From a virus: a DNA stretch of 64,000 nucleotides. The stretch lies in the IMG/VR virus record IMGVR_UViG_3300045988_126875. The stretch is one strand, 5' to 3'. The notes beneath the pieces were generated by a model. That model was given only the letters and a program-made list of their open reading frames with translations, had not been told where the DNA came from and made no database searches. Position 1 is the first letter of the stretch. Each line of letters begins with the position of its first letter. Positions 41,775 through 60,155 of the stretch are shown here, one piece after another. The position numbers and the translations under genes are program-made.

Positions 41775-41791
41775 TGTCTTACTTTTTTAGA

Positions 41792-41862
41792 GGCTTGTGG
41801 CGGAATCGAACCGCCCTACGAGATTTTGCAGATCCCTGACTAAACCACTCATCCAACAAGCC
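41792..41862 (-). tRNA. tRNA-Cys (GCA)
   Basis: Hand-folded: acceptor ggcttgt/acaagcc, anticodon stem gggat/atctc loop cuGCAaa, T-arm ggcgg-ttcgatt-ccgcc. Confidence 0.7.
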
Positions 41863-41865
41863 ATG

Positions 41866-41937
41866 TAGCCCAACCGGGAATCGAACCCGGAACTAAAGTT
41901 TAGGAAACTTTTGTTATATCCGTTTAACTACCAGGCT
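41866..41937 (-). tRNA. tRNA-Arg (CCU)
   Basis: Anticodon stem aaagt/acttt loop uuCCUaa, T-arm ccggg-ttcgatt-cccgg; acceptor has 3 G-U pairs. Confidence 0.6.
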
Positions 41938-42007
41938 ATTTAATGTTTGCTATGTTCACACACCACAAACACCGAGATAATTAACACTTTACACAAAATA
42001 TGTACCG

Positions 42008-42078
42008 TTATCCAAGGAGGATTCGAACCTCCGCTAACAGAACCAAAATCTGTTGTGCTACCACTACACCATTGGACA
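42008..42078 (-). tRNA. tRNA-Gln (UUG)
   Basis: U1:A72 acceptor (bacterial Gln-like), anticodon stem acaga/tctgt loop uuUUGgu, T-arm ggagg-ttcgaat-cctcc. Confidence 0.7.
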
Positions 42079-42079
42079 G

Positions 42080-42152
42080 TGGTCCCGGAGGGATTTGAAC
42101 CCACGATCTTGCGGTTATGAGCCGCCTGCTTTCACCACTAAGCTACAGGACC
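42080..42152 (-). tRNA. tRNA-Met/Ile2 (CAU)
   Basis: Acceptor ggtcctg/cgggacc, anticodon loop cuCAUaa, T-loop ttcaaat; one mismatch in T-stem. Confidence 0.6.
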
Positions 42153-44959: not shown

Positions 44960-46069
44960 TTATAGATTATACAATGTTTGATTTAAGACGTATGTTGATT
45001 CGTATTTAGGATTGAACATCTTTATCATCTTATACTGATCAGACCAATCCATAACAACATCTCCTTTTATAAGTGATTTTACGGAAGACAGTATATTTTC
45101 CTTACCGATAGAAAAATTAAAACACGGGCCTTCCAGCGCATTAAAAGGCATTGATTCCATTATCTTTTTTCTATTTCCAAAATCCTCAGACATTACTGTT
45201 ATGCCGTTTTCTTCATCTACCTTAACATTGACAACATTATCCACTAAAGTCATGGAATTAAGAACCGATATAAGCAAATCCCTATCGAACTTAACACTCG
45301 AAGATTTTTCGAATTTGCTACATACGTATTCGTAGTTAGGATACTGTTGTTCTACGTTCATATCCGATATAATTACATTATCAAAGCATAAGAACGTCCT
45401 AACTCCATCTGTAGAAATACTGATCTCCGTATCTTTATCAGATAGAAAGCGGTACAAGATAGAAGCCGCAACCTCGCTTAGCATAATCGACCTTTCTTCT
45501 ACTGCATTAGCATACTCTTTCCTGTTTATAAACAGACGGAACATATCAGTAGAAACAATGTCAATATAGTCCTTCTTCACATTAAGAAGAATCGAGCATA
45601 TAGCTGGTCTAAATTCATCCGATCCAACAAACGCAAAAGATCTTTTCATAGACTGAATGAAAGACGAACTCATAACACGAATACCGTCACCTACAGGATA
45701 AAAGAAATCAGGGAAAGCCTTATCCTCAATCCAAGTAGAAGAAAAAGATCCTCTATCGTATTTAAAAACGATACTGTAATCATTTTTAATCTCTATCTCT
45801 ATATCCTGGTTATGATTTTTAAAAAATGAAATAAGAGTCCCGGCATCTACTAAAAGAGAAAACTTATAGTCACAAGAAATATCAGTATTCACATCGAAAA
45901 TATCATCCGTATATGTTATACGTTCGTTCATGGCTTGTATCCGGATATGATCAAAATATAAAGTAATTTTTATATTCGATGTGACACAATCCTTTAGAAC
46001 CTTATCAAACATCTTTGAAATGTTTGAAAGTTTCTCATTCATTAGTATGCCAGGAACTCTTACTTTCAT
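44960..46069 (-). CDS. putative DNA polymerase sliding clamp (DnaN-like)
   Basis: 369 aa, size and three-domain-like repeat pattern compatible with beta clamp; adjacent to SSB; weak. Confidence 0.35.
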   Translation of the reverse strand: MKVRVPGILMNEKLSNISKMFDKVLKDCVTSNIKITLYFDHIRIQAMNERITYTDDIFDVNTDISCDYKFSLLVDAGTLISFFKNHNQDIEIEIKNDYSIVFKYDRGSFSSTWIEDKAFPDFFYPVGDGIRVMSSSFIQSMKRSFAFVGSDEFRPAICSILLNVKKDYIDIVSTDMFRLFINRKEYANAVEERSIMLSEVAASILYRFLSDKDTEISISTDGVRTFLCFDNVIISDMNVEQQYPNYEYVCSKFEKSSSVKFDRDLLISVLNSMTLVDNVVNVKVDEENGITVMSEDFGNRKKIMESMPFNALEGPCFNFSIGKENILSSVKSLIKGDVVMDWSDQYKMIKMFNPKYESTYVLNQTLYNL

Positions 46070-46165
46070 TTTTTAAAACTTACGATTATGACTATCTAAC
46101 ACTGCAAATGTATTATTTTAAAATCTAATTACGAATTAATTGGATTTAAAATGATTTAAAATAGA

Positions 46166-46699
46166 TTAAATACTTCTTCTTGTTGCTTCTGCTATAAGCA
46201 TCGCATCAACTATACCGTCATGGGCTGTCTTACATCTTTCGTTTTTAACGAACGTATCGTTTGGCCACAGTCTTTTAGCGCAGGCCAATGATGTTTTCTT
46301 AGTATTTACCTTACTGGCTTCCATAACCTTATCAGAATGCGTCCAAACCAATTTCTGCCATGTTTTAGGAGCTATGAAATTAACGGAGCAACTTATGTAC
46401 GGAAATGCCATGCAGAGGGACAGGAACAGCCCATGCAGTTGGCCTTTGTTCTCCATGAGGGAGGCTGTAGAGGACGTGCTGACCCCGTACAGCGCGTGGA
46501 CGTCCTCTATGACAAATACTACCCTATCAGGATTGTTTTCTACGATCGCATCCCGGCAAAAAACATATTCTTTAGTCAAGTCTACCGGCCCTGAAGCTGA
46601 TATTCTCGGAGTGGAGATTCTCGATATTAGTTTGCTGTCTTGATCGATGCAGGCTATGGCTCCATCTTTTCCTGGATCTGCTGCTATATATAGTACCAT
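46166..46699 (-). CDS. RuvC-like Holliday junction resolvase
   Basis: N-terminal IAADPGKDGAIACID (RuvC motif I Asp) and C-terminal HDGIVDAMLIAE (catalytic Asp/His region). Confidence 0.6.
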   Translation of the reverse strand: MVLYIAADPGKDGAIACIDQDSKLISRISTPRISASGPVDLTKEYVFCRDAIVENNPDRVVFVIEDVHALYGVSTSSTASLMENKGQLHGLFLSLCMAFPYISCSVNFIAPKTWQKLVWTHSDKVMEASKVNTKKTSLACAKRLWPNDTFVKNERCKTAHDGIVDAMLIAEATRRSI

Positions 46700-46705
46700 A
46701 ACACG

Positions 46706-47140
46706 CTAATTTAAATTCATGTCGATTTTACCAATGCTATCGTCATTTTCAAAGCCTCCATTGTCTGTAAGTTCGTAATCGATAGCCACAGCACCATTAC
46801 TAAGAATGTAAAATCCTTTAAACATCTTTCCTATTTCAATAGGATACACGACATTTACGTCCCTTCCAATATCCTCAAACGGCATAGCGATATCTTCTGT
46901 ATTAGCATCCTTTTGTTTTGCTAATACACCAACGGGTATATTTTCACCTTTTATAGATGCGTATGTAACCATATACAGAACATCATTATTAACAAACGCC
47001 CTATCACTACTCACCTTATCCAAGCTGACATATATAATATGTTTTATAAAATTATTGATATCCCCACATATGTTAATAGCTTCTACTTCTTTAGGAATAA
47101 CGACTTCCACTTCTTCTGGTTTTATATTTTTCTTTTTCAT
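46706..47140 (-). CDS. hypothetical protein
   Basis: 144 aa. Confidence 0.4.
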   Translation of the reverse strand: MKKKNIKPEEVEVVIPKEVEAINICGDINNFIKHIIYVSLDKVSSDRAFVNNDVLYMVTYASIKGENIPVGVLAKQKDANTEDIAMPFEDIGRDVNVVYPIEIGKMFKGFYILSNGAVAIDYELTDNGGFENDDSIGKIDMNLN

Positions 47141-47400
47141 TGCATTAATCTTTTTGTATTTTGCTTTACTTCTTCAACAAGATCCTGATCTTTCATCATC
47201 TCTTGCTTAAGTTTCTCATTCTCCTTAATTCTTTTCACCCTATCGGCAAGAATCTTCTTATATTTCTTATCCGATATTTTAATAAACCAAGGACAGTTCC
47301 TTGATGGAATCCTTTTACATGGATAATAAGTTAGACCGTTCGGTCCAAACTGCTCGCATCTGTTACATTTCTCTTCGCCTGTCATGTCTATATTTTTCAT
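47137..47400 (-). CDS. hypothetical zinc-ribbon protein
   Basis: 87 aa, CNRC...C...C; immediately downstream of IscB-like gene. Confidence 0.4.
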   Translation of the reverse strand: MKNIDMTGEEKCNRCEQFGPNGLTYYPCKRIPSRNCPWFIKISDKKYKKILADRVKRIKENEKLKQEMMKDQDLVEEVKQNTKRLMQ

Positions 47401-47409
47401 TCAAATTAA

Positions 47410-48540
47410 TCAATTCATTTCCTTTTGTATCATAAAACGTTTACACCTTGACAGTTTCAATTTCTTGTACGTTATATCCTTCTGTTTTTTACCGTCAATA
47501 TCTCGAATATTAAAACTACCGGTTTTACGCCTTCCTAATATAAAGTAATAACTGTTTTCAAACATAACCCTATCAAACAAACGGAAACCAAAAACTTCAA
47601 AAGGAGATTGATTTAACCTTTTGATTCCTCCTTTTAGAATCTTTTGTTTGTGAATTTGACGATTATGTCTTCTTACTAATCTTACTTTATAATAATATCC
47701 TAACCTTATAGCATCAAAGTTTTTAGAAATAACAAAGGCATCAGAAACATGAGATTTTTCAATGTCGTGATTGATTCTATTATATTTTGTAACATAACCG
47801 AAAGTCATAGAAACTCTATCATATTTAGACTTTAGTTCTTCATACAACCTCCATTTCATGATCCCCATCACGGCTGCGTCGCGAAGCGACTTGCCTCTTC
47901 TGATCTTTAAATCTATATTACCTTTATGGTATTCTTTATGACAAGTTTCACATAAGGTAATAAGATTAGAAGGGGAATCCCCTCCGGTTTTTCGAGACTC
48001 AAGATGATGAACATTCAATACTGGGTCTTTTGACTTTCCTTTACAATACTGGCATTTGTGTCCATCCCTTGCCAAGACATATTCCCTTGTGTTCCAAAAA
48101 CCAAGTTGATCTCCTTCCTGATATTCCTTACCTGATATCTCAGGATTCTTGATCTTTTGGGTATCGAACTGAGCTACTTCAATAACAATACGAGATATTG
48201 GAAGTATAGAACAAACATTGTCAATAACACGAATATGGGCGTCTATTTTGTACCGCACCGAAGGTGCTACCCATCCCGGACGCTCGCTTTTTACTCTGTT
48301 ATTGAAACGAGGTTTTCTATACCTCAATCTATTTCGTCTTGTTCTTCGTAGCTGCCTTCTGGTAGATAAAAGATCTACGATATCATTTCTAAGAATAACT
48401 TCACTGCTGTAAAGTTCTTTGCTTTTCGTCGTTGCTGATAGACCAACGTGTTTAGTACCAGCATCAACGCCTAACACAATTTCTTGTTTGTAATCAGATG
48501 TTACGTACATTAATTTGATGGTAAACGGACATAGGTTCAC
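47410..48540 (-). CDS. iscB: IscB-like RNA-guided nuclease (split RuvC with inserted HNH, Arg-rich bridge helix)
   Basis: RuvC-I IVLGVDAGTKHVGLS; bridge helix RRQLRRTRRNRLRYRKPRF; RuvC-II IVIEVAQFD; HNH CQYC...NVHHLESRK...SNLITLCETCH; RuvC-III HVSDAFVI; C-terminal ~100-aa TID-like domain. Track start is GTG at 48540; in-frame ATG at 48510 is an alternative start. Confidence 0.7.
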   Translation of the reverse strand: MNLCPFTIKLMYVTSDYKQEIVLGVDAGTKHVGLSATTKSKELYSSEVILRNDIVDLLSTRRQLRRTRRNRLRYRKPRFNNRVKSERPGWVAPSVRYKIDAHIRVIDNVCSILPISRIVIEVAQFDTQKIKNPEISGKEYQEGDQLGFWNTREYVLARDGHKCQYCKGKSKDPVLNVHHLESRKTGGDSPSNLITLCETCHKEYHKGNIDLKIRRGKSLRDAAVMGIMKWRLYEELKSKYDRVSMTFGYVTKYNRINHDIEKSHVSDAFVISKNFDAIRLGYYYKVRLVRRHNRQIHKQKILKGGIKRLNQSPFEVFGFRLFDRVMFENSYYFILGRRKTGSFNIRDIDGKKQKDITYKKLKLSRCKRFMIQKEMN

Positions 48541-48875
48541 AACGACTGCCTTTTGTCTTTAAGCAGTCTCCTAACCTTACCATACCTCGTTGTGGGCATC
48601 ATAGGTTTACCATCTATATCCTGTACGTACACCATACTTACAAACGTTTTTAATGTTTATTCAACATAAGTCAGAGTAAAACTCTGTTAGTACCCATCGC
48701 CAATGTTATTTAAGGTTTTTCGTAAGCAACACTATAGCTCGAATACAACCATTGTTTAATCACTTACCTTAGAGCTACGAACTTGGGCAAACATCCGTAG
48801 GTAACTATCTATTCTTAAATAACGTAGTGTTTGTTTCAACACTTAGGCTAATAATCGGAATAGCTTTTGGCTATT
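48541..48875 (-). ncRNA. structured RNA upstream of iscB-like gene, copy B (candidate omega-RNA/HEARO RNA; conserved core 48668-48875)
   Basis: Non-coding 530-nt gap between thyA stop and iscB start; ~210-nt core shares sequence and covarying stems with 18291-18502; proximal part has gactgc/gcagtc hairpin. Confidence 0.45.
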
Positions 48876-49070
48876 ATACATAATACGATACAAATTGTTT
48901 GTGATTTGTATAAGTTATGCATTATTCGCGATTATACGCATCCGAATAAGATCCTTTCCTACATGGAAGTATATTTTCAACAACATAATCAAAACCTCCG
49001 ACATTAACTTCATCGCCGGAACTGATTTCCATAATAGGAATCATTTTGGCTCTTCTATCTATGCTTATTT

Positions 49071-49943
49071 TCATTTAGCTACTTCGAATTTTATTTGCTC
49101 CTTCGGTTCATAATTCCATACCTCAAAATCATCAGCCACAAAATCATAAAATCCTTTCCCTTCCATACGAGACGAGATAGTAACCTGTGGAACCGGGCCG
49201 AAGAGGGATCGACGGAGGAGCTCGTTTGCCTGCTCTTCGTGACGGTCATATACGTGCATATCTTGAATGAAGTGCGTAAAAATAGCCGGCCTTAACCCGG
49301 CGTCGTGAGCGAACATCATCATAAGTGCAGCGTACTGTGTTACATTCCATAGGCCGGCAACAATAGCATCCTGGCTGCGCTGGTAAAGAGTCATATATAA
49401 CTCATCTCCTTTAACAGATAAATTGACCTGAAACGCACATTCTTGAAGAGGTTTTAGTCCATTGGTTTCAGGATCGAACATAGATGCTACTATTCTTCTT
49501 GACGAACGATCATTCTTGAGTGACCAAAGAATGAAGTCTGTTTGGTTAAGAAAACCGTAAAGACCATCATGGATATCTGTCATACCATCTGGAGCTTTTC
49601 CGGTACCCATATAAACATGTCTGTTCACCATATCTCCATAACATCCTTCTATCTTTCCATTATCATCAGCCCACTGATCCCATATATGAAGACCAAGATC
49701 TTTGATATCTACCGATCTTTTTTGCCAAATCCACAATATTTCTTTTATGGAGTTTTTAAGATTAGTAGGTCTAAGTGAACCAAGAGGAAATTCCCGGCGA
49801 AGATCGTACTGGTTACATACTTGTAGGATACGCTTCACCTTGACGCCTGTCCCGTCACCGTAGACCGGTCGCTTTACCTCTTCCCACGGCTGACTCATTA
49901 TAAGAGCCAAATTGTCTTGAAATATTTTATCTACTCGCGACAT
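49071..49943 (-). CDS. thyA: thymidylate synthase family protein (divergent ThyA-like)
   Basis: ThyA-fold motifs: catalytic Cys in LQECAFQ, YQRSQD, QDMHVYDRH; N-terminal substrate region and Asn177-equivalent region diverge from canonical ThyA. Confidence 0.7.
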   Translation of the reverse strand: MSRVDKIFQDNLALIMSQPWEEVKRPVYGDGTGVKVKRILQVCNQYDLRREFPLGSLRPTNLKNSIKEILWIWQKRSVDIKDLGLHIWDQWADDNGKIEGCYGDMVNRHVYMGTGKAPDGMTDIHDGLYGFLNQTDFILWSLKNDRSSRRIVASMFDPETNGLKPLQECAFQVNLSVKGDELYMTLYQRSQDAIVAGLWNVTQYAALMMMFAHDAGLRPAIFTHFIQDMHVYDRHEEQANELLRRSLFGPVPQVTISSRMEGKGFYDFVADDFEVWNYEPKEQIKFEVAK

Positions 49944-49957
49944 AATTATATCTTTTT

Positions 49958-51385
49958 TTATAAATTAAACTCTGCAAAATCTATTTCAGATCCGGTTGAC
50001 AAATTGATCATTGACTTCTCAAGTTCTTCCATTGGGATAGGTTCAACAATTCCTTCGTTTGAAAGTGTTTTATTATAGAAATCAATAACCACCGGATCAC
50101 TTGTCTTTACCGTTTTAGGGATAGGTTGACGAAGATACATTCCGTCCAAGCTTTTCACTCTGGAAAGTGCCGTATATAACTGTCCTGTTTCAAAAGAGTT
50201 CGATACGTCCATCATGGCAGCATCTAACGTAAGACCTTGGCAGCGATGAACAGTTATCGAATAACCAGCTTTTATCGGGTACTGAACAATAGAACCAATA
50301 ACTTCAGATTCTACCTTGTACCCATTTCTGACGTATTTTACTTTATCAAACGAACATGGAATAATAACAACCTTAGTATGTTCTTCATCTTTAGGACGAT
50401 CAAGAACGACTTCAATCTCTCCACTCTTAATAGAAGACACAACGCCGAGAGATCCATTTACATACTCTCCTCCGTTTCTGGTGATCATAACTCTTGACCC
50501 TTCTTTTATAAGAAGCGTCTTTTCAACAGGAGCTTCTTTAGGATAATCACCTTTTATAATAGCTTCGAATTTTCTTAATGATCCAGGAACAGAATTTATT
50601 CTCATTTCATTAATGGCCGTAGCCTTGGCATTAGTCGTAACAATCTCAACATACCCGGCACTATTTTCAGGCTGAATACATCTGCTATTTAACGTACTAA
50701 ACACATCATCGTCCATCTGACCATCACGAACCTTATTAAGGATGCTGATAAATTTCTCATCTTTCTGACGATATATTTTTTCAAAAGACACCATTTCCAT
50801 ACCAGAAGCCATAAGGGACTTAGAGCTGAAGAAATAAGATGTATCGTATATTTCTCTAAAGAAATCTTCTTTGATTACGGGTGGTAACTGAAATAAGTCT
50901 CCTACCATAATAAGTTTCACGCCGCCAAACGGATCCTTGTCGCCTCTTGCACGACGAAGAATGTCCGCAACATTATCAAGAAGATCAGGACGAACCATAG
51001 AAATCTCGTCTATGATAAGATATTTTATATTCTGTAAAATCTTTTCGGATTCTCCTCTGAACTTGTTTTCACAATTGTCCATAAACTTGCCATTCCTTAT
51101 CTCTGGAATGTAAGGTTGCATACCGATTCTGAAAAAAGAATGAATGGTTTGGCCACCTGCATTAACAGCAGCAATACCGGTAGGAGCGACAACAACCGCA
51201 TTTTTTAATGCCGGTATAATACGCTTAAGGAAGTACGTTTTTCCTGTACCTCCTTTTCCCGTAATAAACAGCGGTTTAGGTGACTTACAAATAGACTTAA
51301 TAGCCTTTCCTTGTGCGACATTACCTTCGGACATAACTGAACGAAGAACGCACTCCATGATTTTTTTGTCGTAACTTATAGCCAT
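49958..51385 (-). CDS. SF1 Dda/PIF1/RecD-like helicase
   Basis: Walker A GKGGTGKT, LIIDEISMV (Walker B), GDLFQLPPV (motif III), C-terminal QGLTLD and TALSRV motifs. Confidence 0.75.
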   Translation of the reverse strand: MAISYDKKIMECVLRSVMSEGNVAQGKAIKSICKSPKPLFITGKGGTGKTYFLKRIIPALKNAVVVAPTGIAAVNAGGQTIHSFFRIGMQPYIPEIRNGKFMDNCENKFRGESEKILQNIKYLIIDEISMVRPDLLDNVADILRRARGDKDPFGGVKLIMVGDLFQLPPVIKEDFFREIYDTSYFFSSKSLMASGMEMVSFEKIYRQKDEKFISILNKVRDGQMDDDVFSTLNSRCIQPENSAGYVEIVTTNAKATAINEMRINSVPGSLRKFEAIIKGDYPKEAPVEKTLLIKEGSRVMITRNGGEYVNGSLGVVSSIKSGEIEVVLDRPKDEEHTKVVIIPCSFDKVKYVRNGYKVESEVIGSIVQYPIKAGYSITVHRCQGLTLDAAMMDVSNSFETGQLYTALSRVKSLDGMYLRQPIPKTVKTSDPVVIDFYNKTLSNEGIVEPIPMEELEKSMINLSTGSEIDFAEFNL

Positions 51386-56281: not shown

Positions 56282-59200
56282 TTTTGTCATGAATCTTAAC
56301 AGCAAAGAACTTTATATAAATATGGGTAACGATATCCCGTTATGGAATGACCTTTATTCTTATGAAGAGCAAGACGATGATGTCAAGCAATTCTGGGAGA
56401 ATGAGGCTATGAAACTCCTTAACGGTGTTACCATAAATGGAGTATTTATACATCCTTGGCTATATTGGCATATCAATTTCTGGAAGATGATGATTGACGT
56501 AGGAGATGATCGTATTCCTGGAAATTCTCAGCTTCGTGATAATGAATGGATGTTTGCCGAATTTCTAAAGCAGGCGGAAGAAGAGAATAAAGGAATATTC
56601 ATGTTCGGGTGCCGTCGTTTTGGGAAAGCCCTTCTTGATTCTGAGATACTTTATCTTGAGGACCGGGAAAAGATGATAGGAAATATTGTTGTAGGGGATA
56701 AGATATATGACGATAAAGGGAATTTGGTAGAGGTCGTAGGTGTTTATCCCCAAGGAAAAGTAACTACCTACAGAGTCGTATTCGAAGACGGTCGTAACGT
56801 TATTTGCTGCGGTAATCATCAATGGCGCGTCAATCATGGCGGAAAATGGCATGTTAGGAGTCTTAGAGCCATAGCTGGATTAGATTATAAGAGTATGTCT
56901 ATTCCAGTAGGTGAGGCCCTGAACTACCCTACGGCAAAGCTGCCGGTTTCGCCGTCGGCCTACGCCTCGATGCTGGCGGCTTATCTCGGTGGCTATGGAG
57001 GGGATATGTTTTTTGATAAATACGTTTGTAAGAAGTTTTTAAGATCGTCCATAGATCAAAAGAAAGATTTTATAGAAAACTTCATTCGTTCTTTCAGAAA
57101 CGTAGTAACCGGAGAAGAAGAGCTTACGTTGTCTCATATTGACATGGATGTCATAAATTTTGTACAACGTATGTTTTGGGCTTCAGGTTGGTATGCTAAA
57201 TTGGAGGGGAACAAACTTATACTATCAAGGAATCGTAAGGAATTAAAAATAAGATCCATATCAATATACGGAAAGGAACATGCCACCTGTATAACCGTTG
57301 ATAATGATTCTCATTTATTTTTGACCACCAATTACGTCGTTACTCACAATACGGCTATAATGAGCTCCCTACTGGCTCGTAATGCTACAATGACATACAA
57401 TTTGACGCATAATGTTATTGGAGCAAGTAAAGAAGACCTTGCCAATATGGGAGAGTATCTTGAGTTTGGACTTGATAATCTTCCTCCTTATCTTACTATA
57501 AACAGGACCGGTAACGACTGGACTAAAGAAGTTGTTTTAGGTACAAGAAACATCAATAACCAACGTGATGTTCATGCCAGAATAAGAATCACCAACGTTG
57601 ATGATGGAAAGACGCGAGGCTCATTGAAGACCGCAGGTGGAACTCCATATACGTCTATATATGATGAGGTAGGTAAATTTCCGGTGCTTGGAGCATGGCT
57701 TGCCGGTAGGCCGGCTCATATGATGCATGGTAGAATGAGGGGCGTTTGTCTTATGGCTGGATGTTGTTGTGCTGGAACCATAGTATATAAATCAAATGGT
57801 GAGCCATGCCGAATAGAGGATTTGAAGCAAGAGGATGGAATAGTAGGATTCGATAATGTATCATCAAAAGCTGTAAGTCAAGACATAACATGGATGAAAC
57901 CTCCTGCCGAGAAAGAGTGTTACAGAATAACAACGAAAAGAGGAAGGGTGCTTGAATGCAGTGGGGATCATCCCATATTGACTGTTATAAAGAAAAGAAG
58001 TGGTGAATTTAGGTATTTTGGGGCTGACTTCAGAAGAGCTGACTCTCTTAGAGTTGGTCGTAAAATATGTGTATCGGATGGTGTGGATATATGGGGAGAT
58101 AAAAAAATGTTTGATCCATATCTTGTTGGTATTCTAATAGGGGATGGGAGCTATGGTTTTGATAAGACTCCTGTCGTGTCTACCAGTGATAATGAGGTGT
58201 ATGATTATATACGATCTAAATATGAGTGTTGTATAGAGAAACAGTATAAGACTAAGAACGGAAAAGACTATAGGGAAATAAGAATAAAAGGTATATGCCA
58301 TGAGTTAAGGGAACTTGGTATATATGGTCAGACTAAAAAAAACAAAACACTTCCTTTAAATATACATTTATATAGAAGGGAGGATGTTATTATGATGATT
58401 AGGGGGTATTTTGATGCTGATGCTACTTTTTGTTCTAATAATGATAAAAGACATCATCGTATAAGTGTAGGATCTTGTAATAAACATCTTCTTGAAGAAA
58501 TAAAGGATGTTCTTTTTAAATTTGGAATACATAGTACTATTTCTTATAGCCCATCTAAAAATCCAGCAGATAGATCTATTATTCTTGATTCATATGTATG
58601 TAATATATTGGATAAATTATCCATGTTTAAATATTGTAATATAATTGGAACAGATATAGGATATAGAAGAGAAAAACTTGATTCTATAAGGGAATTTAGT
58701 TCTAATTTTAGCACATTTGGTTCTTTTAGGTCAAAATATTTAGATGGAGTGATAATAGAAAGGATAGATAAGATAGAGTATATAGGAATTAAGCCTGTTT
58801 ACAATCTCACTGCATCAGATACTCACACTTATATAGCAAATGGTATTATAACTCATAATACCGGAGGTAATGTAGAAAAGTCTCAAGATGCCCAGAAAAT
58901 CATGAACTCTCCGGACGAATATGGATTCATTATAATGAATTATGATATTATGAATAAGAGAGTTATTAAACCAACATGGCGTATATGTAAATCCGGATGC
59001 TTTGTTCCTGCCCAGATGTCTCATGCGTATGAAAAGACAGAAACTACTCTTGATAAGTATCTTGGAGTAGAGAGTGCTCCCGGTCTTAAGAAGATAAAAA
59101 TAAAAGTTTCAGACTTTGATAAAAATACTGGAATAATAAAATCACGTCTTGACGAACTTGTCAAAAAGGATAGAGCTTTATACGTCCAGGAACGAATGGC

Positions 59201-60155
59201 ATTCCCTTTGTCTATAGATGATTGTTTCCTTAATACGAACGTAAATAGGTTCCCTGTAGAAGATGCGTTGAAGCACAAAAGCCGTCTTCTTGAAGAAGGT
59301 AGGCCTGGTAAAACAGTAGATATTTATCAGATAGACGGCATGAAAATGGGGTGTAATTTTAGTGATAAGCAGCTTGCTGATTATCCGTTTCAAGGTGGTA
59401 ACATAGATTCTCCTGTTGTTATATATGAGGATCCACCAGAAGAAGGAGGTGTTTTTGATTACACTTATGTCTCATCGCTCGACCCATATAAATCTGACAA
59501 GGCTGATACTGATTCTGTTGGTTCGTTTTATGTACTTAAAAGATATGTAAAAATCAACGATCCATTTGCTTATTGCATAGTAGCATCATACGCATCACGT
59601 CCTCCATCTTCTGATGATTTTTGTAGGAATTGTGAAATACTTCAAGAAGCGTATGGGGCCAAGTGTCTTATGGAGAATGCCGACCGAATGTATGAATTTT
59701 ATCTTACGAGACGAAATAAGCAGCTTATGTTGCTGGAAGATGGCGAACGTCTTGCCGGTAAGATTATCCGTGCCGGCGCCCGTCAGAACAACAAGCTCGG
59801 TTTGGCTCCTACGGTTCCCAATCAGCGCATGCTTTTCAATACCGTTATTCAATATTGCTGGGAGGATGTTGTTGTTGGGTATGATGATGATGGTAATGAA
59901 ATAACACAGAAAGGTATTTACCGTATCCCTGATATAGAACTTCTTGATGAGATCATAGCCTTCGGCCCCGGGACCAACACCGACCGTATCATAGCCTTCG
60001 GCCACGCTCTTCTTCTGGCTAAGTATTATGATGATATGGGTTACATGCCTGAAAGTACGACTCAGAAGGAGAATCAAAAGAAGAGAGAGCGCAAGAAGAT
60101 AGAACAGGTCAAAGGATTTACGGTAAGAAGACATAACCCTTATAAAATGAGGTGA
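56244..60155 (+). CDS. terL: terminase large subunit containing two inteins
   Basis: Extein motifs: P-loop GCRRFGK|T (split by intein 1), Walker B TSIYDEVGKF, LMAG|TGGN (split by intein 2); spliced length ~696 aa (~690-700 given the intein-2 boundary uncertainty). Confidence 0.75.
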   Translation: MSRMKLRTSSISSFVMNLNSKELYINMGNDIPLWNDLYSYEEQDDDVKQFWENEAMKLLNGVTINGVFIHPWLYWHINFWKMMIDVGDDRIPGNSQLRDNEWMFAEFLKQAEEENKGIFMFGCRRFGKALLDSEILYLEDREKMIGNIVVGDKIYDDKGNLVEVVGVYPQGKVTTYRVVFEDGRNVICCGNHQWRVNHGGKWHVRSLRAIAGLDYKSMSIPVGEALNYPTAKLPVSPSAYASMLAAYLGGYGGDMFFDKYVCKKFLRSSIDQKKDFIENFIRSFRNVVTGEEELTLSHIDMDVINFVQRMFWASGWYAKLEGNKLILSRNRKELKIRSISIYGKEHATCITVDNDSHLFLTTNYVVTHNTAIMSSLLARNATMTYNLTHNVIGASKEDLANMGEYLEFGLDNLPPYLTINRTGNDWTKEVVLGTRNINNQRDVHARIRITNVDDGKTRGSLKTAGGTPYTSIYDEVGKFPVLGAWLAGRPAHMMHGRMRGVCLMAGCCCAGTIVYKSNGEPCRIEDLKQEDGIVGFDNVSSKAVSQDITWMKPPAEKECYRITTKRGRVLECSGDHPILTVIKKRSGEFRYFGADFRRADSLRVGRKICVSDGVDIWGDKKMFDPYLVGILIGDGSYGFDKTPVVSTSDNEVYDYIRSKYECCIEKQYKTKNGKDYREIRIKGICHELRELGIYGQTKKNKTLPLNIHLYRREDVIMMIRGYFDADATFCSNNDKRHHRISVGSCNKHLLEEIKDVLFKFGIHSTISYSPSKNPADRSIILDSYVCNILDKLSMFKYCNIIGTDIGYRREKLDSIREFSSNFSTFGSFRSKYLDGVIIERIDKIEYIGIKPVYNLTASDTHTYIANGIITHNTGGNVEKSQDAQKIMNSPDEYGFIIMNYDIMNKRVIKPTWRICKSGCFVPAQMSHAYEKTETTLDKYLGVESAPGLKKIKIKVSDFDKNTGIIKSRLDELVKKDRALYVQERMAFPLSIDDCFLNTNVNRFPVEDALKHKSRLLEEGRPGKTVDIYQIDGMKMGCNFSDKQLADYPFQGGNIDSPVVIYEDPPEEGGVFDYTYVSSLDPYKSDKADTDSVGSFYVLKRYVKINDPFAYCIVASYASRPPSSDDFCRNCEILQEAYGAKCLMENADRMYEFYLTRRNKQLMLLEDGERLAGKIIRAGARQNNKLGLAPTVPNQRMLFNTVIQYCWEDVVVGYDDDGNEITQKGIYRIPDIELLDEIIAFGPGTNTDRIIAFGHALLLAKYYDDMGYMPESTTQKENQKKRERKKIEQVKGFTVRRHNPYKMR
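56628..57350 (+). mobile_element. intein 1 (241 aa, Ala1-type N-terminus, degenerate LAGLIDADG-like LAAYLGGYGGD) inserted in TerL P-loop
   Basis: Starts ALLDSEILYL (block A with Ala1), block B-like CCGNHQW, ends VVTHN followed by +1 Thr that restores GKT. Confidence 0.65.
57762..58859 (+). mobile_element. intein 2 (~366 aa) with LAGLIDADG homing endonuclease domain
   Basis: Block A CCCAGTIV, block B ECSGDHPILT, LAGLIDADG motifs LVGILIGDGS and IRGYFDADATF, C-terminal GIITHN + Thr; N-boundary uncertain by 1-5 codons. Confidence 0.7.

Follow-up and report, generated by a model that had tools for sequence, protein, structure and literature searches.

An IscB and omega-RNA element in a human-gut phage: a probable selfish homing element with a split nuclease gene

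A 64,000-nucleotide stretch of viral DNA (IMG/VR record IMGVR_UViG_3300045988_126875; the whole stretch is hereafter called the window) carries, in the replication module of a ~150-kb human-gut phage, a gene for the RNA-guided nuclease IscB and, upstream of it, the omega-RNA that would direct it to DNA. These two parts are the only content of a 1,550-nucleotide element (48935..47386, minus strand; to 48951 with its guide), which extends beyond the coordinates given in a first-pass annotation of the same DNA. We judge it probable that the feature is a non-autonomous element of the IS200/IS605 type (ISC) that spreads as a selfish homing element, with a guide borrowed from the phage sequence beside which it has landed and an empty allele of its own insertion site as predicted target. 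In the window, the nuclease gene of this element is split by the loss of a single base.

Two comparison sets underlie what follows. The closest phage in GenBank, csAssE-Sib (OR575929.1, 151 kb, human gut), is free of the element, is 94-97% identical to the window in the flanks and served as the reference empty genome. From 303 related stretches in IMG/VR, 80 related loci were fetched, and comparisons of flanks, boundaries and the frameshift rest on these. Coordinates of the individual features are collected in Table 1.

The nuclease and its guide RNA

The main open reading frame (ORF) is, by its sequence, an IscB RNA-guided nuclease and a relative of Cas9. Its 376 residues scored 317 bits against the NCBIfam model NF040563, 'RNA-guided endonuclease IscB' (cut-off 175), rising to 358 bits for the 408-residue protein obtained when the missing base is restored. 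Pfam returned RRXRR (E 3.8e-47) together with HNH, and phmmer matched solved IscB chains at E 1e-41 to 1e-43, those of OgeuIscB (7utn and 7xht) at ~1e-41. The residue-level alignment was made to the solved chain 11hr_A (495 residues), against which 7utn and 7xht score nearly equally. In the numbering of the repaired 408-residue protein, used here throughout, this alignment places the RuvC-I aspartate at D58 (GVDAG) and the RuvC-II glutamate at E153 (IEVAQ); the arginine-rich bridge helix occupies residues 93-111, the HNH insert contains two CxxC knuckles (195-198 and 229-232) on either side of the histidine pair 210-211, and H296 and D299 (HVSDAF) make up RuvC-III. A RuvC fold split by an arginine-rich bridge helix and an inserted HNH domain, with the catalytic D, E, HH and H..D all in place, is the layout of IscB, and both the motif order described in the first-pass annotation and the profile match that it had anticipated were borne out. 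Towards the C-terminus the NCBIfam profile ends at about residue 303 and the phmmer alignment to OgeuIscB at about residue 332 of 408; the tail beyond, where an IscB would have its WED/TAM-interacting domain, is kept among the phage relatives.

The structured RNA previously noticed upstream of the nuclease likewise proved genuine, matching the Rfam family HEARO (RF02033), the guide RNA of IscB, at 102.8 bits (gathering score 83, E 2e-21) and no other Rfam family. The match lies on the iscB strand, immediately upstream, and stops 50 nucleotides short of the ATG at 48635. Across 35 relatives, RNAalifold found compensatory changes in 19 of 51 predicted pairs. The RF02033 model is without downstream structural elements (Meers et al., 10.1101/2023.03.14.532601); in the window, two terminal hairpins read from the sequence (CAGAG-TTTTA-CTCTG and ATGTT-GAATAA-ACAT) stand directly before the start codon, and the RNA pairs 271-275/284-288 covary, being GC versus AU in 15-16 sequences. 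At the opposite end, the first 7 nucleotides of the element pair with the 7 that precede a conserved TAGCC, and the ~85 nucleotides between them form two further hairpins, giving an enlarged version of the guide adaptor hairpin. Both arms of its closing stem change together from one element type to another (ATAATCG/CGATTAT, ATATCCG/CGGATAT and ATAACCC/GGGTTAT), four of its pairs show compensatory changes, and 95.6% of cells are paired, versus 25-44% when the partners are slid. Recovery of this 5' module required an alignment restricted to type-1 sequences and an explicit structure, RNAalifold on mixed type-1 and type-2 sequences not recovering it. Because the closing stem is compensatory and the interior paired, the boundary of the element is the base of this hairpin.

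Taken together, the phage-borne IscB and upstream omega-RNA pass every available test of this kind for an OMEGA system. It is very improbable that the locus holds instead a free-standing HNH homing endonuclease, with protein-based DNA recognition, beside an unrelated cis-regulatory leader. An HNH domain is indeed present, and phage replication modules often house homing HNH genes, but here a RuvC fold with a bridge helix surrounds the domain, the entire protein fits the IscB equivalog model and the solved IscB structures, and the upstream RNA is HEARO; a classical homing endonuclease is ruled out by these three matches. Nor is the locus of the type II CRISPR-Cas9 kind, as no CRISPR repeat array is present in 45000-51000, the flanks are phage genes and Rfam gives HEARO only. 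Two aberrant relatives were also seen: P0001 (520 residues) is an IscB with an internal tandem duplication of ~112 residues, and P0049 (488 residues) an N-terminal fusion without the PLMP domain.

Boundaries and insertion sites

Conservation among copies begins at ATAATCGCGAATAATG (48935) and ends at ATATAGAC (47386), 26 nucleotides past the start of the stop codon, a tail that is kept at 12 of 14 distinct sites. Outside these limits the copies diverge: at least 14 distinct downstream flanks and, among 85 copies, 47 distinct 22-nucleotide upstream flanks were counted, with the element ends identical. The same element thus occurs at several unrelated sites without target-site duplication, as is characteristic of IS200/IS605 elements. 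Simple insertions, in which flank, element and ATG stand in place of the flank and ATG of the empty allele, are seen for example at the L064 and L033 sites. Among intact relatives located elsewhere, one lies upstream of a DUF4494 gene (L003) and one between two large structural genes (L005). The element is found in a large population, its 408-residue IscB form being present across hundreds of related phages.

csAssE-Sib holds two TnpB genes and no IscB, at 58986-60125 (L093 8986..10125, minus strand) and 64190-65413 (L093 14190..15413, plus strand); neither is present in the window. The second, 408 residues long and annotated as an RNA-guided endonuclease, was considered as a counterpart of the window IscB and rejected, being a TnpB unrelated to it.

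Guide, adjacent motif and predicted target

No segment within the element varies between copies at different sites, and variation begins exactly at the 48935 boundary. Since nothing internal changes from site to site, the guide must, on this comparison, be the upstream phage flank, a position that agrees with OgeuIscB, in which the guide adjoins the guide adaptor hairpin on its 5' side (PMC9640706). A guide inside the element, just 5' of the Rfam P1 hairpin, was rejected, as copies from three different sites have the same sequence there.

On the other side, the three bases past the element are ATG at 12 of 14 sites, and at ~15 sites ATG also comes after the stretch of an empty allele that corresponds to the upstream flank, which identifies ATG as the transposon- or target-adjacent motif (TAM). 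Of 120 alleles that are empty at the commonest junction, 105 have it, and the window's own site reads ATGGAA in 74 of 74 homologous IMG/VR empty alleles. The element itself begins with ATA or ATT, and an occupied site is therefore without the motif. That the ATG is merely the start codon of the downstream gene was rejected, since it also occurs at a tRNA-gene flank (L052-L059) and at internal, out-of-frame spots in empty alleles.

In the window, the 16-nucleotide guide matches itself only. In csAssE-Sib, with up to two mismatches allowed, its sole match is this locus in its empty form, TCTTATTCAGATGCGT (1 mismatch), followed by ATGGAA. In IMG/VR, 74 of 74 homologous empty alleles of the window site (L215-L291) differ from the guide by one and the same synonymous base, TCA for the guide's TCG, at position 8 from the ATG; the site is occupied in only 1 IMG/VR contig. 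A guide whose only near-match is the empty allele of its own locus is characteristic of a self-propagating transposon or homing element, and fits selfish homing better than a weapon directed at the host or at unrelated phages.

Three further observations concern these sites. Firstly, at the commonest junction (120 IMG/VR loci, L095 onwards), the 105 alleles with the motif read GTAA/ATGAAGA, and the other 15 carry a synonymous AAC and no ATG, as does csAssE-Sib; the AAC alleles could be motif-escape alleles. Secondly, the window holds empty versions of the L033-type and L051-type sites, with matches to AATATACAAGTTTGTATC joined to ATGAAAGTAA and to GAAAAATAGGATAATAGG joined to ATGGAATATT, both of which are occupied by iscB in other phages. 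Thirdly, in L037, L039, L040, L044 and L074 the empty junction is without ATG (GGTA/ACAACGG) and the occupied allele reads ATGAAYAACGG after the element; the element of this L037 subfamily appears to supply an ATG from which the downstream ORF starts anew, five codons in.

A one-base deletion in the window copy

According to the first-pass annotation, the window protein lacks the N-terminal PLMP domain and is preceded by a 530-nucleotide non-coding gap, and neither description holds. The ATG at 48635 opens MVYVQDIDGKPMMPTTRYGKVRRLLKDKRQSL, followed by a stop, which is the PLMP domain (starting MVYVQDIDGKPMMPTTRYGKVRRLLKDK, with a PMMP motif at residues 11-14) in a different frame from the main ORF. 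The supposed gap takes in the truncated 3' end of a phage ORF, which reaches to 48922, as well as the guide, the ~290-nucleotide omega-RNA and 99 nucleotides of PLMP coding sequence. What separates the domain from the nuclease body is a run of four adenines (A4) in place of five (A5): all ~80 related copies examined have A5, and A4 is confined to the window allele. One A added at 48551-48554 joins both frames into a 408-residue protein reading RRLLKDKKAVVVNLCPFTIKL, whose junction (DKKA, then I or V, then VVNLCPFT) is that of intact relatives at 80-94% identity. Coverage by Pfam RRXRR, 33-174 on the 376-residue ORF, becomes 1-174 after repair, and the NCBIfam IscB profile, which also begins at position 33 on the ORF, covers 1-312 of the repaired protein. 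Because the PLMP domain is encoded out of frame here, and the same residues stand in frame in all intact 408-residue relatives, the window gene is on this evidence a disrupted member of the family, not a PLMP-less variant.

The split allele, called as genes of 32 and 366 residues, was found on 12 contigs from ENA and Logan assemblies, all 100% identical to the window over 5.1 kb, although these may derive from one sample and their independence is not established. Because it recurs on these contigs, the deletion appears to be a trait of the phage population and not of a single assembly, and sequencing error is an unlikely source of A4, the same allele being present in both ENA and Logan assemblies, though perhaps from the same sample. 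Programmed frameshifting was rejected as the principal explanation: A5 is in frame in all ~80 relatives and C-AAA-AGG is no canonical slippery heptamer. The A-run precedes a rare AGG codon, at which a -1 slip would restore the wild-type sequence; such a slip, or coupled re-initiation at the overlapping GTGA, could yield some product, nothing supporting either.

We read the deletion as a recent inactivating mutation. Mutations in the PLMP motif lower cleavage by IscB (PMC9640706), and, with the domain parted from the nuclease body by one missing nucleotide, the window copy is most likely inactive or strongly weakened. Whether the copy has gone further, to a dead relic of an old insertion in which a nuclease pseudogene and its RNA are without function in this phage, we regard as evenly balanced. 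The split ORF and the effect of PLMP mutations speak for it, as do other disruptions in 6 of the ~80 related copies, the want of any circulating empty allele that matches the guide perfectly, and the single occupied contig against 74 homologous empty ones at this site. Set against these, the lesion is a single one, the other 376 codons form an uninterrupted frame that keeps every catalytic residue, the GTG start shares bases with the TGA before it (GTGA) so that coupled translation of a two-piece protein is possible, and the omega-RNA still scores above the Rfam gathering score. Because the remainder is open and the RNA recognisable after one lesion, any decay would be very recent; and a relic would in any case concern the current state of this copy, not what the element is. 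Elsewhere in the family, stops were seen after codons 40 (L013), 195 (L014), 32 (L028), 335 (L035) and 390 (L075), and decay is, to judge from these, recurrent among iscB copies.

Gene replacement and nested junctions

Insertion at the window site was accompanied by loss of phage DNA. Alignment to csAssE-Sib sets 166 nucleotides (L001 4388..4553), the 3' half of a 100-residue hypothetical gene, against 1,548 nucleotides in the window; the upstream junction lies at an internal ATG of this gene, the downstream junction at the start ATG of the next, and the 166 nucleotides between the two are gone.

A comparable arrangement was observed at the DUF4494 site (L003, L010-L028, L036), where a single, fixed junction downstream, at the ATG that opens the next gene, is combined with at least three common upstream junctions. 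Each of the common upstream junctions stands beside an ATG in empty alleles, with the DNA between lost; rare upstream junctions do not. Two readings of these nested junctions may be offered: in one, strand transfer would join an end of the element to a further same-strand ATG, an adjacent deletion; in the other, two simple insertions would recombine. Under either, the new flank would stand beside an ATG in empty genomes, and the new guide would therefore be valid by construction.

It is possible, if doubtful as matters stand, that this applies to the whole clade of ~150-kb gut phages, such that IscB elements spread between co-infecting phages by RNA-guided homing without a phage-encoded TnpA and re-programme themselves through ATG-to-ATG deletions that furnish fresh guides, with synonymous changes acting as resistance alleles. 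If so, strand transfer of an element end, or recombination between two insertions, would remove an accessory gene and thereby leave nested junctions, a gene replacement and a fresh valid guide, and the resistance alleles would be changes in the ATG or the protospacer, AAT to AAC at the commonest junction and TCG to TCA at the window site.

Proposed mechanism

From this arrangement we infer the following course of transcription, RNA processing, cleavage and homing. Transcription would read in from the upstream thyA operon on the same strand and yield an RNA with the last ~16 nucleotides of the phage flank as 5' guide, followed by a scaffold of ~290 nucleotides. Bound to this RNA, IscB would cut genomes in which the same 16 nucleotides are followed by ATG rather than by the element. 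Such genomes would be those of co-infecting sibling phages with an empty allele at this locus, or copies that have lost the element by excision. Recombinational repair from an element-bearing genome would then copy the element in, which is homing, and would exclude the competitor's allele as well. In the window phage, the insertion removed the 3' half of the 100-residue accessory gene and ends exactly at the ATG of the next.

Several points weigh against this account. The nuclease gene is broken here, so the mechanism would describe the family and not this copy. No TnpA was found in the element, no transposase among nine neighbouring genes, no HUH motif in 25 small window ORFs and no TnpA in the annotation of csAssE-Sib, although copies occupy at least 14 sites; the source of any TnpA may be the host. 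Junctions in L015, L016, L018, L037 and L075 are not beside an ATG. The 166-nucleotide loss makes for an unclean insertion, which neither plain peel-and-paste transposition nor plain homing predicts. Finally, with TCA in all 74 empty alleles, the window copy may have no cleavable target in circulation, because mismatches close to the TAM abolish cleavage by OgeuIscB (PMC9640706). A lost target would fit relaxed selection and the frameshift, but simple linkage is an equally good explanation.

The first-pass annotation was right to see an IscB-like nuclease with an omega/HEARO RNA in a phage; the role that it proposed, an antiviral or anti-host weapon, finds little in its favour, given that the guide is the element's own flank and its near-match an empty allele. 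Such a weapon, an RNA-guided nuclease that the phage keeps to destroy competing phages or host DNA, to its own benefit and not that of the element, seems unlikely. Cutting the empty allele of a sibling would exclude a competitor's markers, as the seg and mob endonucleases of T4 do (PMC13565253), the IscB family is abundant in this phage clade, and a separate solo guide RNA is present in the window as well. Against this, the guides are simply whatever flank the element landed beside, and not chosen; neither window guide matches anything else beside an ATG in the window or csAssE-Sib; no array or other means of guide acquisition lies nearby; and the element disrupts phage genes. Selfish homing thus remains the reading that we favour.

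Table 1. Positions of the features discussed (numbering of the window)
Feature	Position	Strand	Remarks
Main iscB ORF	47410..48540	-	376 codons; its GTG start shares bases with the TGA of the PLMP fragment; encodes RuvC-I, bridge helix, RuvC-II, HNH, RuvC-III, C-terminal region
PLMP-domain fragment of iscB	48537..48635	-	32 codons and TGA stop, 99 nucleotides; now a separate ORF
Frameshift site	48551..48554	-	A4 run; A5 in relatives (GACAAAAAGG)
Omega-RNA 3' terminal hairpins	48645..48685	-	Two hairpins, read from the sequence
Omega-RNA core	48686..48877	-	Rfam HEARO RF02033
Enlarged guide adaptor hairpin	48850..48935	-	Lies at the 5' (right, RE) end; a stem, ATAATCG/CGATTAT, closes over two internal hairpins
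Predicted 16-nucleotide guide	48936..48951	-	TCTTATTCGGATGCGT; phage DNA, codons of the interrupted 100-residue ORF, directly 5' of the element boundary
Truncated 5' half of the 100-residue phage gene	48922..49074	-	47 native and 3 element-encoded codons, then stop; 3' half replaced
3' (left, LE) tail after the stop codon	47386..47409	-	TTAATTTGAATGAAAAATATAGAC
ATG abutting the element (TAM)	47383..47385	-	Also start codon of the csAssE-Sib homologue of the downstream gene
Solo omega-RNA mini-element	18196..18552	-	357 nucleotides; type-2 5' module, HEARO core, own GC-rich 3' hairpin, type-2-like LE tail, then ATGGGA
Predicted guide of the mini-element	18553..18568	-	Flank-derived

Comparison with known systems

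On the tests made, the locus belongs to the known IscB, omega-RNA and IS200/IS605 (ISC) system and is largely ordinary in it. Its phage location is not unusual, because viruses and prophages were already reported to account for more than 16% of HEARO/IscB loci (PMC9755519). Searches of the literature for csAssE, and for IscB in combination with crAss, brought up nothing relevant.

With OgeuIscB, from a human-gut metagenome (7utn, 7xht, 8csz), the window protein shares the order PLMP, RuvC-I, bridge helix, RuvC-II, HNH and RuvC-III. The likeness extends to the RNA, where the guide comes directly before the guide adaptor hairpin and a pseudoknotted scaffold and terminal hairpins come after it (PMC9640706), and the ATGR motif of the window is compatible with the TAM reported for OgeuIscB, NWRRNA/NNRR. 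The differences lie in size (408 residues after repair versus 496, some ~90 shorter), in the last ~75 residues, which do not align to OgeuIscB by sequence, and in the guide adaptor hairpin, of ~85 nucleotides with two internal hairpins versus 43 nucleotides. A strict ATG is predicted for the window element, unlike the OgeuIscB TAM, and the window copy is frameshifted.

GstIscB of the IS605-family element ISGst (Meers et al. 2023, 10.1101/2023.03.14.532601) likewise takes its guide from the flank. Its TAM, TTCAT, is the reverse complement of ATGAA, in line with the ATG of the window; its element is also non-autonomous; in both, iscB is oriented like the upstream gene; and the residues mutated in GstIscB, D58 and H209/H210, are close in number to D58 and H210/H211 of the window protein. 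Whereas GstIscB resides in a bacterial chromosome, the window element resides in a phage genome and has no known TnpA, and in its family, unlike in GstIscB, insertion goes together with loss of the DNA that lay between two ATG motifs.

A third likeness is to seg and mob, the free-standing homing endonuclease genes of T-even phages. These, too, lie between conserved phage genes, occur in some close relatives and not in others, and would be expected to spread in co-infections through cleavage of the empty allele; homing from one co-infecting phage to another is a category already discussed in the literature (PMC13565253). They differ in having protein-based recognition, no defined transposon ends and no adjacent motif of the ATG type.

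Specific to the window clade are the compact 408-residue protein, the enlarged guide adaptor hairpin, the strict ATG motif, an insertion coupled to replacement of a small gene, solo guide-RNA elements and a large population of occupied and empty sites. IscB and its omega-RNA are of interest as the likely ancestor of Cas9 and as a compact scaffold for genome editing, and their natural biology is known mainly from one Geobacillus system. The phage clade offers a natural population for a direct test of the selfish-homing model, in which hundreds of copies are spread over 14 or more sites, siblings have the matching empty alleles, the motif is a simple ATG, solo guide-RNA elements occur and copies stand at varied stages of decay. 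For annotation, the gene should be recorded as a frameshifted iscB within a transposon that truncated a small phage gene, and not as a new variant without PLMP.

A second, nuclease-less omega-RNA element

The window also contains a solo omega-RNA mini-element, whose HEARO match (18308..18538, minus strand) scores 93.4 bits in Rfam and which has no iscB ORF downstream. It is inserted in the remnant of an 86-residue ORF, upstream of a DUF4494 gene, and csAssE-Sib lacks an element here as it does at the iscB site. Three related contigs, L046, L049 and L077, carry this mini-element too, at other sites, and in some relatives a full iscB element occupies the intergenic region that it holds in the window. 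Its guide has no motif-adjacent match in csAssE-Sib. Any activity would need IscB supplied in trans. Set beside the small non-autonomous derivatives of IS200/IS605 elements and stand-alone omega-RNAs, the mini-element keeps both ends and a guide RNA, without a nuclease; the type of its 5' module differs from that of the window's iscB copy.

Other features of the window and of csAssE-Sib

In csAssE-Sib, a diversity-generating retroelement is annotated at 45751..47816 of L092 (variable repeat (VR), template repeat (TR) and reverse transcriptase), adjoining a tail-fibre gene. Four clustered tRNA genes lie at 41791..42152 of the window (minus strand). At ~54000, GC skew and coding strand both change sign, genes before ~53.5 kb being on the minus strand and those after it on the plus strand.

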